A stretch of DNA of 62,566 bases, from the NCBI GenBank assembly GCA_036781285.1, contig DAIQBH010000006.1, forward strand, positions 1 through 62,566. Direction: 5' to 3'. The DNA comes from Thermodesulfobacteriota bacterium. GTDB lineage: Bacteria; Desulfobacterota; Binatia; UTPRO1. Made by a program: the position numbers and the translations under genes. The notes under the pieces are model-generated. The model ran no database searches, had not been told where the DNA came from, and saw only the letters and a list, made by a program, of their open reading frames with translations. This document shows positions 33,911 through 41,924 of this stretch, in pieces (within the stretch, counting starts at the first letter, position 1; each line of letters opens with the position of its first letter).

Positions 33911-35335
33911 TCAGCCCGCGCCGTCGACCTCCGCTGTCAGAAGCGGCAGGAGCACGGCGGCGAGCGCGTCGACGATCTCCGGCGGGACCGGCCGCTCCTC
34001 GTCACGCACGCGGGCGAAAAGCGCGCCGATGGCGTCCCGTGTCTCCATGTCGAGCGCGCTCGACGCGCCGAGCTTGCCCTCGCGCGGCTCCACTTTCAGC
34101 GGATCGCGTTTGGCGTGCGCCCGTCCGACCACCGAGGCGAAATGGAGGAGCGCCCGATCGAGCAGCACCCACGGGAACTGGCGATCGCGGAGCGGCCCGA
34201 TCGTCGCGATGCGCCCGGCAACGCTTTGTCCGAGCACCTTCACCTCGACGGCCTGTTCGGTGCCGAACCAGCTCGCGATGCCTCCGACGACGCCGCCGAT
34301 CACGCTGCCGAGGAGGAACGAGTGTCCGAGTGTCGCCGCGTCGATGACGCCGCCGATCGCAGCGCCGCCGATCGCCCCCGCGCGCACGATCTGCCACTGG
34401 TCGAGGCCGAACACGCGCCGGTTCTCCTGCGCGAAGAGATCCCACTCGAAGGCCTCGGGCGCGAGGGCGGCCTCCTCGCGCGTGACCCGCTCGTGCCGGT
34501 AGAGCCGCTCGATCTCGCGCCGCGCGCGCTGCTCGCGGTCGCGGAGCGCCGCGAGGAACTCGGACTCCCACGCGACCCGGTGTCGTTCGATCGTGTCGTT
34601 CTCGGCGAGCGGGTGCTCCACGGTGAAGGTCACGGCGTCCGCGACGAGCTCGGCGACGATCGCGGCGGCACGGTCGCGCCGCCGTCGCCAGTCCGCCTCC
34701 AGCACGCGGATCGCTTCGTCGATGGAGGCCCGCGCGCCGGCGTCGAGCTCGCGAAAGGCGCGGAGCAGCGCCACGCGCTCCGCGAAGCCGGAGCGGTGGG
34801 CGTCGAACGGGCGTACCACGCTGAAGTATTGGCCGAGCGCGCGCGTCCATTCGTCGACGTGGTCGGCGCCGCCGATCGCGTTCACGAGCGCCATGCGTGG
34901 ACGGCCGGTCCAGCGCAGGATCTCCATCTCGGCCTCGTAGTTCCGGCGGTACGGCAGCGACGCGTCGACCACGTAGAGGATCGCGGCGCCGTCGAGGATC
35001 GGGGTCAGCAGCGCGCACTCGTCGGCGAACTCGGCGCCGCCGCGGAACGTCTCGACGAAGCGCGCGACGAGCGCCGGCCGGTCGGCGGCGCTCTGCTCAC
35101 GCTCCTGGAGCCAGGCGAGCGCGCGCGGCGCCTCCTCGAAGCCCGGCGTGTCGATCGCATAGCAGAGCACGCGGCCGTCGTCGGCGCGGAACGGGAAGCG
35201 GGCGCAGACCCGCGTCGTGCCGGGCTCCTTGTCGACGCGGACGGAGTCGTCCTCCACCAGCGTCGAGACGACGCTCGACTTCCCCTTGTTCACGCGCCCG
35301 ACGACCGCGAAGGCCGGAACCGCGTATTCGGTCAC
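33911..35335 (-). CDS. GTPase/DUF3482-like protein
   Basis: G1 GRVNKGKS, G2 PGTT, G3 DTPG, G4-like VNAI; GxxxG transmembrane hairpin. GTGA overlap with the upstream stop. Confidence 0.8.
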   Translation of the reverse strand: MTEYAVPAFAVVGRVNKGKSSVVSTLVEDDSVRVDKEPGTTRVCARFPFRADDGRVLCYAIDTPGFEEAPRALAWLQEREQSAADRPALVARFVETFRGGAEFADECALLTPILDGAAILYVVDASLPYRRNYEAEMEILRWTGRPRMALVNAIGGADHVDEWTRALGQYFSVVRPFDAHRSGFAERVALLRAFRELDAGARASIDEAIRVLEADWRRRRDRAAAIVAELVADAVTFTVEHPLAENDTIERHRVAWESEFLAALRDREQRARREIERLYRHERVTREEAALAPEAFEWDLFAQENRRVFGLDQWQIVRAGAIGGAAIGGVIDAATLGHSFLLGSVIGGVVGGIASWFGTEQAVEVKVLGQSVAGRIATIGPLRDRQFPWVLLDRALLHFASVVGRAHAKRDPLKVEPREGKLGASSALDMETRDAIGALFARVRDEERPVPPEIVDALAAVLLPLLTAEVDGAG

Positions 35336-36846
35336 GAGACCAACGCCTCCACGCGGAGCCACGGGTCGCCGAGCGCGGCGACCCGCTGGCGCCAGATCCG
35401 CACGTCGTCCGGCTTCGGCGCGGCGTGATCGTCCGATCCGCCGAAGAGTGCCACGATCACCGGGACGCGCTCGCCGACGCTCCGCCGCACGTTCTGCAAG
35501 AGACGCTGGACGCTCTTCGACGGCGGCTCGAAGGCCTCCGCGACGAGGAGCACCGGCCGGTCGCTTTCCGCGAGCGCGGCGAGATGCCGGCGCTCTCCGG
35601 GGTCGTCGTCGCCGCGGACGTCGTCGAGCGACGCGACCTGCCAGCCGTATCGCGCGCCGACGAGCCGCGCGACGTCGTCCCGCGAAACCGCCGCGTCGGC
35701 CCAGCGGAGCGCGCGGACCACGACGCCGCTCACGGGAAGGGCGCAGCCGCTTCCGACGTCCGCCGTCGGTGACGCTACGACCGCCGTGCCGACGGTGTCG
35801 CCGCGGCCCCAGAGGTTCGCGCGCTGGAGAAGGCGCTCGCAGAGCGCCGCGCACTCGCCGTGATCCAGGGCCAGCGCCGCGCGTGCGCGGCGCGCGCGAT
35901 GCGCGGCGTACGTCGCGAGGAGTATCCGCGGCACGAGCGCGTACGCGACGAGCGCGGCGACGAGAAACGGCCACCAGTCGCCGAGGAGATCGGGGTCGTA
36001 GTCGCGCCCCGGGAAGTAGCGGCTCGCGGCGACGAGCTCCGGGCTCGGCACCGCTGCGTCGAGCCAGAGCCACGGTGTCGCCATCGCGTGGAAGAAGCTG
36101 GTCATGACGGCAGGGTCGACCTCGAGCGTGGTGCTCCACGCGAACGCGAGCGCGCGAACCGTCACGAGGTACATCGTCGCCGCCAGCGCGCCGAGATTGA
36201 AGGCGACGGCCGCACGCTGCGTGAGCGCCGTCAGCAACCAACGCTCGACGTCGGCGTAGATGGTTTGCCAGGCGGCCAGTCGTCCCAACGCGGCCCGTCC
36301 GCGCGCGCCGACGGCGCCGTGATCCGCGAGCTTTCGCGCGCTCCGGTGCGCGAGCTCGCGGAGCAGCGCCGGCACGCCGGCGCCACGATCGAGTCCGAGG
36401 ACCCGCGCCACGCCGCCGAGCCACGCGCGCGGCACCATGCCGATCACCGTGAGCGCGATGAGCGCCACCTGGAGGAACACGAGCACCGCCAGATAGCCGA
36501 CGATGTTCACCGGATCGCGCCCGTCGTACGCGAGCAACCCCGCCGCCGTTGCCGCACCCGCGACGAACGTCGCGATCGGCAAGAGAACGCCGGCGGCCCG
36601 ATACACCCCACTGATCCGCTCCCCTACCGACGCCCCCGCAGGATCGCCGACGGCCGTGAGCCAATGCCGCACGAGCTGCCGCCGCGACAGCGAAGCGGCG
36701 CGCCCTCCGAGCGCATCGGCGATCCGCGCATCCCGCGCCGCAACCTCGCCAGGATCCCGCTCCCGATCCTCGAGCAACCGCACCTCGAGATCGATGAGCT
36801 CGGCCAACGACAGCGGCCCCCGCCCCGGCTCCACGGCGCCGGTCAC
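35332..36846 (-). CDS. DUF2868-like membrane protein
   Basis: Three hydrophobic segments, LAFAWSTTL, WWPFL...Y.LVPR, C-terminal EAFEPP. Usual partner of the DUF3482 GTPase. Confidence 0.72.
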   Translation of the reverse strand: MTGAVEPGRGPLSLAELIDLEVRLLEDRERDPGEVAARDARIADALGGRAASLSRRQLVRHWLTAVGDPAGASVGERISGVYRAAGVLLPIATFVAGAATAAGLLAYDGRDPVNIVGYLAVLVFLQVALIALTVIGMVPRAWLGGVARVLGLDRGAGVPALLRELAHRSARKLADHGAVGARGRAALGRLAAWQTIYADVERWLLTALTQRAAVAFNLGALAATMYLVTVRALAFAWSTTLEVDPAVMTSFFHAMATPWLWLDAAVPSPELVAASRYFPGRDYDPDLLGDWWPFLVAALVAYALVPRILLATYAAHRARRARAALALDHGECAALCERLLQRANLWGRGDTVGTAVVASPTADVGSGCALPVSGVVVRALRWADAAVSRDDVARLVGARYGWQVASLDDVRGDDDPGERRHLAALAESDRPVLLVAEAFEPPSKSVQRLLQNVRRSVGERVPVIVALFGGSDDHAAPKPDDVRIWRQRVAALGDPWLRVEALVS

Positions 36847-36980
36847 GACGCGAACCCCGCGCGCTCAGACGAACCAGGCCGACGACGGTGCGGGCAACGG
36901 GAAACCACGACGCCCGAGGTTTGTACCCGCACCAGCGCACCACCAGCAACGCACCCGTGGAGCAGCAAAAGGGAATGGAC

Positions 36981-37122
36981 GTGGACGGCGGGCGGGTCGG
37001 AGATCGGTCGGGGAGCGGTCAGCTCGCGTATTACGCAAGCCATTGTGGCTGCGACGGGCCTTACGCGCCGGGACCAGCGACCCCGCGACCGTAGGCCGAT
37101 GTCCGACCCGCCCGCCGTCCAC
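36981..37122. repeat. Long inverted repeat (27-bp arms, 1 mismatch)
   Basis: GTGGACGGCGGGCGGGTCGGAGATCGG (36981-37007) vs CCGATGTCCGACCCGCCCGCCGTCCAC (37096-37122). Confidence 0.85.
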
Positions 37123-37211
37123 CGCCAATATCTTTCCTTCGCGTTCTTTCGCGCGGTCGTCGACGATCGAGCCTTGCGTCGCAAGAGAGGCGCGTAGTAG
37201 GGTCGCGCCCA

Positions 37212-37307
37212 ATGTTCCCCGCCGACGCCAACCAGCAGCTCCATCGAAACGCCGCCGCTGTCGTCGTCGTAGTCGTCGCCAAGGTCGTAGAGGCCGTCGC
37301 GTCCTAG
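37212..37307 (+). CDS. Val-rich ilvBN leader peptide (IvbL-like), 31 aa
   Basis: [31 protein letters not shown]: 9 Val, 6 of them consecutive, directly ahead of a terminator and ilvB. Confidence 0.88.
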
Positions 37308-37329
37308 CGGGGATTCAGCAGCGCACACC

Positions 37330-37370
37330 AACCCCTGCCGGCGCGAAGGCCGAGCGGGGGTTTCGTTTTT
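37330..37370 (+). terminator. Attenuator terminator of ilvBN
   Basis: AACCCCTGCCGGC-GCGAAG-GCCGAGCGGGGGTT followed by TCGTTTTT. The competing antiterminator strand GCGGGGATT is at 37307-37315. Confidence 0.85.
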
Positions 37371-37425
37371 CAGGGCCCCCGTCTTCGTGCCGAGGGCCCG
37401 CAGGGAGCACCGAAAGGAAGCTCCA

Positions 37426-39123
37426 ATGCAGAGAAAAACGAGCGGCGCCGAGCTGACGATCCGACTCCTCGAGCGCCAGGGAATCACGACCATCGCGGGC
37501 ATCCCGGGCGGCTGCAATCTGCCGCTCTACGACGCGCTCCGCGCGAGCCGCATCCGCCACGTGCTCGCGCGCCACGAGCAGGGCGCGGGCTTCATCGCGC
37601 AGGGCATGGCGCGCGTCACCGGCGAGCCGGCGGTCTGCTTCGGCACGTCGGGGCCCGGAGCCACCAATCTCCTGACGGCGATCGCCGACGCGAAGCTCGA
37701 CTCGATTCCGCTCGTCGCGATCACGGGCCAAGTCCCGCGCGCGATGATCGGCACCGACGCCTTTCAGGAGATCGACACGTACGGCCTCACGGTGCCGATC
37801 ACGAAGCACAACTTCCTCGTGCGCTCGGCGGCGGAGCTGCTCGACGTCGTCCCCGAGGCGTTCCGGATCGCCGCGTCGGGACGGCCCGGCCCGGTCGCGA
37901 TCGACATCCCGAAGGACGTGCAGAACGAAGCGCTCGCGATCGACGCGCTGCCGGCGCCCGGCCGGCCCGATCCGTCGCCCTGCGCCGCCGCCGCCGACCT
38001 CGCGCGCGCCGCGGCGCTGATCGACGCCGCCGAGCGGCCCGTCTTGCTCGTCGGCGCCGGCGTGATCGCGAGCGGGGCGTGCGACGTGCTCCGGCAGATC
38101 GCCGAGGATGCCGCGATCCCGGTGGCGGCGACGCTGCTCGGGCTCGGCGCCATGCGGCACGACCATCCGCTCTTCCTCGGCATGGTCGGCATGCACGCCG
38201 CGCGCTGCACGAATCTCGTGCTCGAGGAATGCGATCTCCTGATCGGGCTCGGCATCCGCTTCGACGACCGCGCGACGGGGAAGGCCGCGGAGTTCTGCCC
38301 GCGCGCGAAGATCGTCCACGTCGACATCGACCCGAGCGAGCTCGGCAAGATCAAGCGGCCGGAGCTCGGCATCGTGGCCGACGTGGGGTCGGTGCTGCGC
38401 GCGCTGGCGCCGCGCGTCGCGCCGTCGGCGCGCTCCGCATGGATCGAGCGCGTGCGGCGTCTTCGCGCCGCGCATCCGCTCGTGATGCCGGGCGTCCGAG
38501 GCGGGCCTGACCCCCGCGATCCGTACGGCATCATCCTGCACACCGCGGCGCTCCTCCCCGAGGACGCGATCGTCACGACCGACGTCGGCCAGCACCAGAT
38601 GTGGGCGGCGCAGGCCTATCCGTTCACGCGCGCGCGCCAGTGGCTCACCTCGGGCGGCCTCGGCACGATGGGGTTCGGCCTGCCGGCCGCGATCGGCGCT
38701 GCGCTCGCCGCGCCCGACCGCACCGTCGTCTGCTTCAGCGGCGACGGCAGCCTGCTCATGAACGTCCAGGAGCTCGCGACCGCCGCGGAGGCCGGCGTCG
38801 ACGTGAAGGTCGTGCTCCTCAACAACGCCCACCTCGGGCTCGTGCGCCAGCAGCAGGAGCTCTTCTACGGCGGGCGCTATCACGCGTCGCGGTTCCATGC
38901 CGAGCCCGACTTCGCGGCGATCGCGCGTGGGTTCGGGGTCCCGGCGTTCGATCTCGGCTGCGGCGATGATCCGGGCGGGATGCTCGCGCACGCGCTCTCG
39001 GTGCCGGGGCCCTTCCTCGTCAACGTTCCGATCGCCGCCGAAGAGAACGTCTACCCGATGGTGCCGCCCGGCGGCGCGAATCGCGAGATGATCGGAGGAG
39101 AGCTCCATGCCCGCGCGAGCTGA
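37426..39123 (+). CDS. ilvB: Acetohydroxyacid synthase large subunit (AHAS I-like)
   Basis: [58 protein letters not shown]...NN, YPMVPPG. Confidence 0.96.
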
Positions 39124-39454
39124 CGTCGTTCTGCGCCTCCGCGTCCGCAACCACCCGGGGGTGATGTCCCACGTCTGCGGCCTCTTCGCGCGCCGCGCCT
39201 TCAACGTCGCGGGAATCATCTGCGTTCCCGTCGCCGATGGCGCCGAGAGCGCGGTGCTTCTTCTCGTTCAGGACGACGATCGCCTCGAGCAGATGATCCG
39301 CCAGCTCGCAAAGCTCGAGGACGTGTGCGCGATCGTCCGGACGGACGAGGCGGCAGCCGCGTTCGCGGCGGCTGCCGTCCTGCTATCGGCCGATCGACTG
39401 TGGCCGCTCTCGGCGGCCGATCAGAGCTCGCAGCGCCGGAAGGGCCCCGCTTGA
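39107..39454 (+). CDS. ilvN: AHAS small subunit, short ACT-only IlvN type
   Basis: [22 protein letters not shown]...[17 protein letters not shown]. Confidence 0.93.
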
Positions 39455-41451
39455 TCGGTATCCACGCACACGTCGTCGCCCGGCCCACCGTCCATGCCGT
39501 CGAGGCCGTCGTCGCCGCGCAGCAAATCGGTGCCGGCCGCGCCCTTCAGCCGGTCCGCCCCGAGCCCTCCGTGGAGCTCGTCGTCACCCTTGCCGCCGTC
39601 GAGACGATCGTCGTTTTCGCCACCGAGGACGTGGTCGTTGCCGGCGTCGCCGCGGAGGCGGTCCGCGCCGGGACCGCCGACGACGTAATCGTCGTCGGCG
39701 CCGCCGAGCAGCACGTCGTCGCCGGCTTCGCCGCAGATGACGTCGCCGCCGTCGCCGCCCTTGATGCGATCGCGGCCACCGCCGCCGAGGATGACGTCCG
39801 CGCCGGGGGTGCCGGCGATCACGTCGTTGCCGTCGGTGCCCTGGCACGGCTGATTCTTGGCGCCGTTCACCGTGCAGCCGGTGCTCGCGACGGCACCGAT
39901 GCAGGGGTCGAAGGCGCAGAACTCGTTCGTCAGCACGACGGTGGCGAAGTCGGCGAAGACGACGGGCTCGCGTCCGGGCGCGGTCACCTGGTCGGCCGCG
40001 CGCTCCAAGCAAAGGCCGCGCGCGTCGATCATGAGGCTGTCCGGCAGGCCGTCGTCGACGCCGCGGAGCTCTTGCCGCGTACGGGCGAGGACCGTGGTCG
40101 TCACGGTGTTGGTCCCGGCTTGGCCGTCGAGCGCGAGCACCTCGACGTCGGTCGCCTGGAGCGTATACGCCCCGATGTTGCGCGCGACGGTGAAGCCCGT
40201 CCCGGCGGGCGCGATCGCGAAGATCTCGTCGAGCCCGCTTCCCAGGAAGTCGACGGTGTCGGTGCCGAGTCCGCCGTCGATCGTGTCGTTGCCGTCGCCG
40301 GGAAACCAGATGAACGTGTCGTCGGCGTCGCCGCCGATGATGGTGTCGCCGCCGATCCCGCCGCGCACCGTCGCCGGCGCGTCGAGACCGGTCAGGTCGG
40401 CGGCGTCATCGCCGTCCGCCAGCCGGACATCGAAGAGCGCGACGGTCGGGGCCGGGCAGGCGGCCGTCGTCGCATCGACGCGCGTGCATCCGGCCGCGAA
40501 GGCTTCGGGCGAGGGGCTCAGGACCGGCTCGCCGGCGTCGTGGAGCAGGTAGACGTCGTCGTCGCGCGTGACCTCGAGTGCGTTCACCGCGAGCGGCGAG
40601 GCGACGTAGGTCAGGGTGGCGCCGACGACGTCGATGGTGCCGCCGCAGACGACGTTGGTTCCGCCGATGCCCTCGAATCCGGCGTACTGCACCGGCTCGT
40701 AGCCGACGACCTGGAGCTCGCTGCCGCGGACGAAGTAGCAATCACCCGCCGCGTCGAGCGTCAGGAGATCGGCGACTGCGTCGGTCCCGGCGTCCGCGAT
40801 CTCCTGGCGTGTCGCCGCGAGCGGTTGCGTGGAGACCACGTCGGCGCCGCCGAGCGTGGCGAGCCGCAGGGTCTCGATCCTGTGGGCGTTCAGCGTGACG
40901 GCCGCGACGTTGCGGTGAAGCGCGAAGCCGGCGCCGTCGCGCACGATCACGTAGCTCTCCGCGGCGTTGGAGCCGTTGAACTGGACGACGTCCTCGCCCG
41001 GTCCGCCGTCGACGGTGTCGTTGTCGTCGCCAGGGCTCCAGACGATCGTGTCGGCCGCGTTGCCGCCGATCACCGTGTCGTTGCCGTCGCCGCCGGTCAC
41101 GACCGCGGGGTGCGCGATACCGGTCAGCACGATCCGGTCGTCGCCTAGCCGCGTCACGATCGAGAACGACGTGATCGCCGCGGCGGGACACGTGACGGTG
41201 TCGGCGTCGAGCGGGGCGCAACCGGCGGCGAGCGCGGCCGTGCCGAGCGTGATCGTCTCGGCCGGATCGTCGATCGCGTACGTGCCCGCGGCGAGTGTGA
41301 TGGTCACCCGGTTCGCCGCGCTCGGGCTCGGGGCCGCGAAGTAGCCGAGCACGCCGGCCGTCAGCTCGAGATCCGCGGCAACCGCCGGCGTCGCGAGCGC
41401 GAGTGAAGCGGCCAGCGCGGCCGCGAGCTTGGTGGTCAGGTGGTGCTTCAC
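39421..41451 (-). CDS. Secreted Ca2+-binding (hemolysin-type GGxGxD repeat) protein
   Basis: GTG start after GAGGAG; signal peptide; two ~235-aa duplicated modules; C-terminal GGxGxD nonapeptides. Confidence 0.87.
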
Positions 41452-41462
41452 GTCTCGTCTCC

Positions 41463-41924
41463 TCACCAGCCGTGGTAGGCCGGATGTCCTGGGGTCACGG
41501 CGACGAAGATGCCGTGACACGTGGCGCAGATCTTTCCGTTGGCCGAGAGCGTGCCCGCGATCGTGGCGCGGCCGCTTTCGACCGAGAGCACCCACGCTTC
41601 GAGCGCGAGGTCGGCGTCCATCGGCGTCGGGTGCTTGAGCTCGATCGCGTAGCTCGCGGTCACGGTGCAGGGCGGCTTCGGGGCGTGGCGCGACCGCATG
41701 AGCGCCCATGCCCCGGTCCAGTTGCAGTGACAGTCGAGCAGGCTGCCGATGATCCCGCCGTTCAGCACGCCGGGAAACGCGTTGTGGAACGCCTCCGGGC
41801 GGAAGGACGCGACGACCTTGTCGCCACGTACGAAGCTCCGCATCCGGAGGCCCTTCTCGTTGGCAGGTCCGCAGCCGAAGCAGATGCCGTTCGGCGCGAA
41901 CTCGTCTTGCAGCGCGTGCTCCAT
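41463..41924 (-). CDS. PaaI-type hotdog thioesterase
   Basis: CFGCGPANEKGL, GVLNGGIIGSLLD, VTASYAIELKHPTP. Confidence 0.88.
   Translation of the reverse strand: MEHALQDEFAPNGICFGCGPANEKGLRMRSFVRGDKVVASFRPEAFHNAFPGVLNGGIIGSLLDCHCNWTGAWALMRSRHAPKPPCTVTASYAIELKHPTPMDADLALEAWVLSVESGRATIAGTLSANGKICATCHGIFVAVTPGHPAYHGW

Follow-up and report, generated by a model that had tools for sequence, protein, structure and literature searches.

A probable ivbL-type leader-peptide attenuator ahead of ilvBN in a bacterial genome assigned to Binatia

The acetolactate synthase genes ilvB and ilvN in the DNA analysed here (the window, a stretch of 62.6 kb with a G+C content of 70.5% from a Thermodesulfobacteriota bacterium placed in Binatia) are preceded by a short open reading frame (ORF) rich in valine codons. 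This raises the question of whether the two genes are controlled by ribosome-mediated transcription attenuation and, if so, how the control element is related to the ivbL attenuator of enteric bacteria. An earlier note on this DNA had proposed a valine-codon attenuator of ilvBN at positions 37212–37425. The anatomy it described is present there, and the comparison with relatives supports the reading: judged from sequence comparison and RNA folding, the region is likely to be a leader-peptide transcription attenuator of the same family as enteric ivbL. Tandem codons for an end product ahead of ilvBN, a predicted terminator, and an antiterminator that depends on the ribosome position in masked folding were all detected.

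The best-matching NCBIfam models of the two proteins are those of the large and the small subunit of acetolactate synthase, and both passed the equivalog cut-offs. IlvB (37426–39123, plus strand) reached 905 bits with NF006016 (cut-off 870) and IlvN (39107–39454, plus strand) 135.6 bits with NF006036 (cut-off 128). The assignment to the AHAS I (IlvB/IlvN) type also relies on the identity of 60–64% between the window IlvB and enteric IlvB. The nearest IlvB proteins (82–90% identity) are encoded by Polyangiaceae (Myxococcota) and "delta proteobacterium" MAGs and by one MAG labelled Binatia; among the matches listed by a protein-based locus search, a "delta proteobacterium" MAG showed 71% identity. 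Judged by the nearest IlvB proteins, the window would most probably derive from the Myxococcota order Polyangiales. In many of the loci listed by this search, enteric ivbL included, a short Val- or Ile/Leu/Val-rich ORF lies ahead of ilvB. The start of ilvN is located 17 nt ahead of the ilvB stop codon, and this overlap (39107–39123) suggests translational coupling. A convergent ORF of 762 amino acids 3′ of ilvN (39421–41709, minus strand) contains many Gly/Asp-rich, GGxGxD-like repeats and, as read from its translation, resembles calcium-binding repeat proteins. Upstream of the leader, two divergent genes occupy 33911–36846 (minus strand). A match of the 504-aa ORF (35332–36846) to NCBIfam models was not found, and the ORF before it gave only weak matches to GTPase domains.

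The leader ORF (37212–37307, plus strand) extends from the ATG at 37212 to the TAG at 37305–37307 and comprises 31 codons, as the earlier note had stated, including nine for valine, a single isolated one for leucine, eight for alanine, and none for isoleucine. Homologous leaders were found in about 35 relatives. Codons 17–22 (GTC GTC GTC GTA GTC GTC, 37260–37277, plus strand) are the proposed stall site. In the six-frame translation of the window, this is the only run of at least five valines, and second-order Markov simulations (100 trials) yielded 0.13 runs of at least five valines and none of at least six. Thus, the run is not expected from composition. The rare codon GTA is enriched eightfold among the leader valine codons of the family (48/256, 19%) in comparison to the adjacent ilvB genes (23/967, 2.4%). 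In the window, it accounts for two of the nine leader valine codons and for none of the 56 valine codons of ilvB and ilvN. The leaders of the family have at least nine different lengths (20–33 codons), and every one of them is in frame from the promoter-proximal ATG to the conserved stop codon. Runs of Val, Ile, and Leu are always located in the leader frame, and the leader valine codons vary synonymously among the relatives. The maintenance of the frame over these lengths and the rare-codon bias lend indirect support to a coding function.

The predicted intrinsic terminator is a GC-rich hairpin at 37330–37362 (plus strand), in which region 3, AACCCCTGCCGGC (37330–37342), forms 13 pairs with region 4, GCCGAGCGGGGGTT (37349–37362), leaving one bulged A (−25.6 kcal/mol). 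The hairpin is followed by the U-tract UUUCGUUUUU (37361–37370, plus strand), the first two U of which pair with AA at the stem base. This corresponds to the U-tailed terminator described before. A simple consensus terminator scan missed the attenuator hairpin because of the bulge in the stem. The U-tract is interrupted, and the same interrupted tract, UUUUUCGUUU, lies behind the terminator of E. coli ivbL. Part of the tract, TCGTTTTTC (37363–37371), is perfectly complementary to codons 3–5 of ilvB, GAAAAACGA (37433–37441). This complementarity is probably due to chance, because it is present in one close relative and absent from most others.

As the competitor of the terminator, the earlier note had named a 9-nt arm, GCGGGGATT (37307–37315), which pairs with AACCCCTGC (37330–37338). 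The first G of GCGGGGATT is the last base of the leader stop codon, and AACCCCTGC forms the base of the terminator hairpin. Eight of the nine positions pair, with one G–U pair and one A–C mismatch. The pairing itself was reproduced, but its extent had been underestimated: when the RNA exposed ahead of a ribosome stalled at the Val run was folded as it would be before the 3′ arm of the terminator is made, an antiterminator of 17 pairs in two helices was predicted (37292–37312 with 37333–37351). Its 5′ strand, region 2 (GGCC.UCGCGUC.cua.GCGGGG, 37292–37312, plus strand), extends from the end of the leader codons across the stop codon to 5 nt past it. In the outer helix, GGCC (37292–37295) and UCGCGUC (37297–37303) pair with GGCGCGA (37340–37346) and GGCC (37348–37351). 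The inner helix consists of GCGGGG (37307–37312) and CCCCUG (37333–37338), and the internal loop between the helices holds the stop codon, with C-U-A of the stop region unpaired. The predicted energy of the antiterminator (−25.6 to −30.3 kcal/mol) is equal to or better than that of the terminator, the entire 5′ arm and loop of which it consumes (37333–37351 are common to both structures).

Three states were compared by partition-function folding with masked ribosome footprints. With the RNA extending to 37351 and the Val-run stall zone masked, the pair probability of the antiterminator was 0.84–0.91. With the ribosome masked on the stop codon, the pair probability was 0 and the terminator formed. 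In these models, masked folding gave both outcomes that had been postulated before, the masking of the antiterminator by a ribosome at the stop codon and its release by a ribosome stalled on valine codons. As soon as the terminator 3′ arm (region 4) was present, the terminator was favoured at equilibrium in all cases; hence, the choice between the two structures must be kinetic, as in other attenuators. To judge from the geometry, only the six-codon run at 37260–37277 is a useful stall site; on valine codons 25, 26, or 29, a ribosome would itself mask some of the antiterminator strand.

In the proposed mechanism, transcription would start at the leader AUG or no more than a few bases from it, and a ribosome would translate the leader behind the RNA polymerase. 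When Val-tRNA is plentiful, the ribosome would arrive at the UAG (37305–37307) and cover approximately 37290–37320 and thereby the antiterminator 5′ strand in full. This would leave region 3 free to pair with region 4, the U-tailed hairpin would form, and transcription would stop before ilvB. When Val-tRNA is scarce, the ribosome would stall within 37260–37277 with its leading edge short of 37292. In this case, 37292–37312 would pair with 37333–37351 before region 4 is made, the terminator would not form, and the polymerase would read through into ilvBN. In an untranslated leader, the beginning of the ORF (37216–37228) may sequester region 2, which would result in termination, too. The ORF and the two alternative structures with their geometry and conservation are shown by the sequence and its relatives; we infer where transcription starts, that the leader is translated, that valine is sensed, and how these events are timed. 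In E. coli, a higher or longer ribosome occupancy on the ivbL UAG stop codon leads to more attenuation (PMC5373646), which is the step on which the proposed model relies.

The segment at the start of the ORF is a possible region 1 (UCCCCGC.GACGC, 37216–37228, plus strand), which pairs with 37299–37313 in the predicted minimum-energy folds; RNAalifold retains four of the pairs. Across the family, the duplex energies of this 1:2 helix were no better than those of shuffled 5′ segments (mean z −0.79; 6/37 below 5%). The helix was dropped as a family feature for this reason and is retained here as a possibility only. The candidate comprises codons 2–6 and precedes the Val run by 11 codons; it would not be masked by one stalled ribosome.

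Two DNA-pattern scans of species-representative genomes retrieved 38 loci with the same element ahead of ilvB. They belong to Polyangiaceae, "delta proteobacterium", Deltaproteobacteria, and Binatia MAGs and to single MAGs labelled Thermodesulfobacteriota, Sumerlaeaceae, Margulisiibacteriota, and Proteobacteria as well as one labelled "bacterium". A search for orthologous ilvB leaders had been suggested as a check of the attenuator, and these approximately 38 loci share the leader, the pairing, and the promoter spacing; most of them also have the hairpin at the ribosome-binding site (RBS) of ilvB. Owing to the common descent of the sequences, the counts given here overstate the number of independent observations. 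The first pattern fixed both arms of the antiterminator and is circular for this structure; the second fixed the terminator only. With the terminator-only pattern, the stop codon was followed by (C)GGGG within a few bases at every locus, and 96.5% of the antiterminator cells in 39 sequences pair, compared with 43–48% for slid partners. For the terminator, 99.2% of the cells pair in 39 sequences. The codons at the end of the leader (GAG GCC GUC GCG) hardly vary, even at the wobble positions, which is consistent with an additional function of these codons in the RNA structure. Compensatory double changes within the clade were found neither in the antiterminator nor in the terminator or the 1:2 helix. 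The support that the clade provides for these structures is therefore conservation, not covariation, and covariation of the antiterminator was seen only between distant lineages. The antiterminator loop (37316–37329) is conserved by subgroup, with CAACGCA in leaders with Val only and AAGUAAC in Ile/Leu/Val leaders. It could act as a pause signal or take part in further pairing.

The earlier note had placed the attenuator in a lineage far from enterics. The nearest IlvB proteins, those of Polyangiaceae MAGs, agree with this placement. The element is not an independent invention in that lineage. A covariance model built only from 39 sequences of the Myxococcota/Binatia clade gave a full-length match in E. 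coli K-12 that coincides with the 3′ end of the annotated ivbL gene and the terminator (39.8 bits, E = 3.6e-8). Further matches were obtained in other enterics (28–41 bits), Zoogloea (36.6 bits), and a spirochaete MAG (25 bits), and a Leptospira locus was matched in part (28.8 bits). Because a model from this clade alone finds the E. coli attenuator, the element is regarded as a new member of the known ivbL family and not as a new kind. By these sequence matches, it is homologous to the enteric ivbL attenuator at the RNA level, and its membership follows from RNA homology and gene context, not from the current peptide models. Neither Pfam PF08049 (IlvB_leader) nor NCBIfam NF007579 (IvbL) matched the leaders of the window or the clade, even at E-values up to 10, whereas the same models gave 72.6 and 78.7 bits with E. 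coli IvbL. The window peptide is too diverged for these models, and routine pipelines would consequently not name it.

The likeness to E. coli ivbL (b3672) extends to details. Both leaders precede an AHAS I ilvB–ilvN operon, are of similar length (32 codons in E. coli, 31 in the window), and carry a Val run near the C-terminus. In both, a UAG stop codon precedes the terminator by 25–27 nt, and the internal loop of a two-helix antiterminator contains this stop codon. The cores of the terminators also resemble each other, with AACCCC(U)GCCGGCGC...GCGGGG(G)UUU followed by UUUCGUUU. In an alignment over the last codons, the stop codon, and the terminator, the E. coli K-12 sequence GCGCCGUAGGG…AACCCCGCCGGCGC…GGGCGGGGUUUUUCGUUU stands against GCGUCCUAGCGGGG…AACCCCUGCCGGCGCG…GCGGGGGUUUCGUUUUU of the window, and an alignment of the RNA core of six sequences contains columns common to all six. 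The minimum-energy fold of the E. coli leader comprises the same two-helix antiterminator; in this fold, the stretch just 5′ of the ivbL AUG pairs with the bases that follow the stop codon. Pairing between the surroundings of the leader stop codon and the 5′ arm of the terminator is shared by E. coli, Enterobacter, Zoogloea, a Verrucomicrobiota MAG, and a Fibrobacteres MAG (z −2.2 to −3.0). These five share the antiterminator design, with helices of different sequence. Most leaders of the family end with Ala-Pro-stop like E. coli IvbL (…GNAP); the window leader ends with Ala-Ser-stop. Differences between the two elements concern the codon content (three Leu and ten Val codons in E. coli, one and nine in the window), the inner antiterminator helix, which is longer in the window (GCGGGG/CCCCUG) than in E. 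coli (GGG/CCC), and the host, since E. coli belongs to the Enterobacterales and the nearest IlvB relatives of the window to the Polyangiaceae (Myxococcota). In addition, E. coli ivbL has a Shine–Dalgarno sequence and a 5′ UTR, whereas a Shine–Dalgarno sequence is missing in the window and the candidate promoter boxes point to a leaderless mRNA.

A consensus promoter scan did not find a promoter in front of the leader. The candidate −35 box is TTGCGT (37174–37179, plus strand) and the candidate −10 box TAGGGT (37198–37203, plus strand), with TAGTAG (37195–37200, plus strand) as an alternative −10 box. In 31 of 32 relatives, the leader ATG is preceded by TTGC at a distance of 36–40 nt. A hexamer beginning with TA is located 12–16 nt before the ATG, likewise in 31 of 32, and fits TAnnnT in 21 of the 32. 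In the window, TTGCGT and TAGGGT are separated by 18 nt, and 8 nt lie between TAGGGT and the ATG. TTGCGT is a weak match to the E. coli consensus −35 box, and both boxes are putative promoter elements. A Shine–Dalgarno-like motif before the leader ATG is absent in 29 of the 32 relatives and in the window. Because of the short distance between the −10 box and the ATG and the lack of a Shine–Dalgarno sequence, the leader mRNA is probably leaderless or nearly so. Just upstream of the candidate promoter, the divergent intergenic region contains an inverted repeat (36968–37135) with 40-nt arms that are 85% complementary and 88 nt apart and include a perfect 19-nt core, GGACGGCGGGCGGGTCGGA. The predicted hairpin has an energy of −109 kcal/mol (z −6.6). 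The repeat was found neither in any of the relatives nor in the rest of the window, and a 19-mer from its arm gave only scattered single matches in unrelated GC-rich genomes; it therefore does not belong to a known repeat family. A small insertion and a structured RNA are both conceivable.

At the other end of the region, the GGAGC/GCTCC stem that had been noticed earlier was found to flank the ilvB RBS. In this hairpin (37403–37424, plus strand), GGAGC (37404–37408) pairs with GCUCC (37420–37424), the RBS AAAGGAA is located in the loop, and the ilvB ATG follows at 37426. The hairpin is present in approximately 26 of 36 relatives with compensatory arm variants such as GGGAGC/GCUCCC, GGAAGC/GCUUCC, GGGAACC/GGUUCCC, and GGAGCC/GGCUCC. 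The arms were compared directly, because the MAFFT columns in this section were out of register, and matched arms were more stable than mismatched ones (p = 0.017). This hairpin may modulate the translation of ilvB. Another hairpin, GGGCCC…GGGCCC (37374–37399), is located between the terminator and the RBS hairpin; relatives with Val-only leaders have a GGCC…GGCC version.

The signal to which the attenuator would respond can be addressed by comparing the codon content of the leaders. The Val-dominated type (…VVVVVVxVVEAVAS), with 9–13 Val, 1–2 Leu, and no Ile residues, occurs in the window and in the relatives closest to it. On the same RNA scaffold, twelve sister genomes carry a mixed Ile/Leu/Val type (…LGLILVVVVVTEAIAP) with the residues LGLILVVVVV. 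As the composition of the window leader is common to its closest relatives, Val-only sensing is a plausible reading. The ilvBN operon of E. coli is responsive to both valine and leucine. A two-signal leader with regulatory codons for both amino acids was not recognized in the window, which has one isolated Leu codon versus nine Val codons.

The strongest competing explanation accepts attenuation and disputes its signal, which could be the general branched-chain or translation status, valine together with another signal (the single Leu or the eight Ala codons), or a second control at the RBS hairpin. We consider it unlikely, though of appreciable weight. The mixed leaders of the sister genomes and the dual response in E. 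coli are in its favour, and the conserved hairpin at 37403–37424 with its compensatory changes suggests an additional layer of control. It is opposed by the leader itself and by those of the nearest relatives (IlvB identity of 81–90%), in which isoleucine is missing and leucine is rare, and by the enrichment of the rare codon, which concerns valine codons. Moreover, isolated single codons cause little stalling in known attenuators.

According to a second explanation, which we judge improbable, the hairpin does not serve as an intrinsic terminator in its host, and ilvBN is subject to Rho-dependent polarity or to translational control, as in the uORF-type regulation of some Actinobacteria. The interruption of the U-tract UUUCGUUUUU is compatible with this, and so are two findings in Actinobacteria: the replacement of the candidate regulatory codons in an ilvB leader of Streptomyces coelicolor is reported not to have affected regulation (PMC1262725), and the Corynebacterium ilvBNC operon is reported to be under the control of a conserved uORF (PMC10272879). 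However, the hairpin and the U-tract are conserved in 39 sequences and homologous to the E. coli ivbL terminator with the same interrupted tract, and an alternative pairing that is controlled by the ribosome and overlaps the terminator arm would be hard to explain otherwise.

It is likewise improbable that the small ORF is untranslated or its translation irrelevant, so that the region would be a structured RNA binding a protein or ligand, or the terminated transcript a trans-acting small RNA. The missing Shine–Dalgarno sequence before the leader ATG and the very strong nucleotide conservation in the 3′ part of the ORF could be cited for such a role, but RNA pairing explains the latter. Trans-acting small RNAs derived from attenuators are known, for example rnTrpL in Sinorhizobium (PMC6614838), and a trans-acting role would add to attenuation rather than replace it. 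Against an untranslated ORF stand the frame maintained over at least nine leader lengths with all Val, Ile, and Leu runs in frame, the synonymous variation and rare-codon enrichment of the valine codons, the lack of a matching Rfam family, and the E. coli homologue, a proven translated leader that is annotated as ivbL and used in reporters (PMC5373646). A T-box, a riboswitch, and a protein-binding leader were rejected, because the Rfam scan of 36000–38500 (E-values up to 10; leaders, T-box, and riboswitches) gave no match within 37150–37430 and the coding signal is clear.

The preferred reading, a ribosome-mediated attenuator of the ivbL family, can also be compared with other leader systems. 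With the classical trp, his, leu, and thr attenuators of Proteobacteria, the window shares tandem codons for an end product, a terminator with an overlapping antiterminator, and the decisive role that the ribosome position would have. Unlike in those attenuators, the regulatory codons are located outside region 1, the weakly supported candidate for which comprises codons 2–6 well upstream of the Val run. None of the leader families in Rfam matches the window. A short Ile/Val/Leu-rich ORF followed by a terminator also precedes ilvB in Corynebacterium, Mycobacterium, and Streptomyces and ilvBN in Caulobacter (PMC1262725; PMC4117421), and RNA-seq in C. glutamicum revealed small leader ORFs upstream of amino acid genes (PMC3890552). 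The actinobacterial operons are ilvBNC, that of the window is ilvBN, and the likeness rests on the arrangement, not on sequence comparison. The mechanism of the actinobacterial ilvB leaders is debated between a three-hairpin and a uORF model. Given the codon replacements without effect in S. coelicolor, a convincing leader is not proof of classical attenuation.

In a wider and more tentative view, which we hold to be possible without favouring it, the ivbL-type attenuator would be one old RNA–peptide cassette that travels with the AHAS I genes. Such attenuators are found in Enterobacterales, Zoogloea, Myxococcota, and Binatia; Spirochaetota and Verrucomicrobiota probably have them, too. In Myxococcota and Binatia, translation of the leader would take place on a leaderless mRNA, and the peptide would have changed several times between Val-only and Ile/Leu/Val sensing, with hardly any change in the RNA switch. 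Two details appear to be new, the probable leaderless leader mRNA and the eightfold GTA enrichment; the retuning between Val-only and Ile/Leu/Val leaders and the spread across phyla are further points of modest interest.

With this finding, the range of a textbook control element of enterics would include Myxococcota and Binatia, for which annotated leader-peptide attenuators are lacking; a full-text literature search did not find a paper that combines myxobacteria, leader peptides, attenuation, and branched-chain amino acids. PF08049 and NF007579 miss these leaders, which a small covariance model does find, and annotation would benefit from a curated RNA model. The approximately 38 loci represent natural variants of one switch, in which the RNA is nearly fixed and the sensing codons are either Val-only or Ile/Leu/Val, and such a natural series is useful for studying how the specificity of an attenuator depends on its codons. 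For the organism itself, the predicted consequence is that the expression of AHAS I would follow the charging of Val-tRNA.
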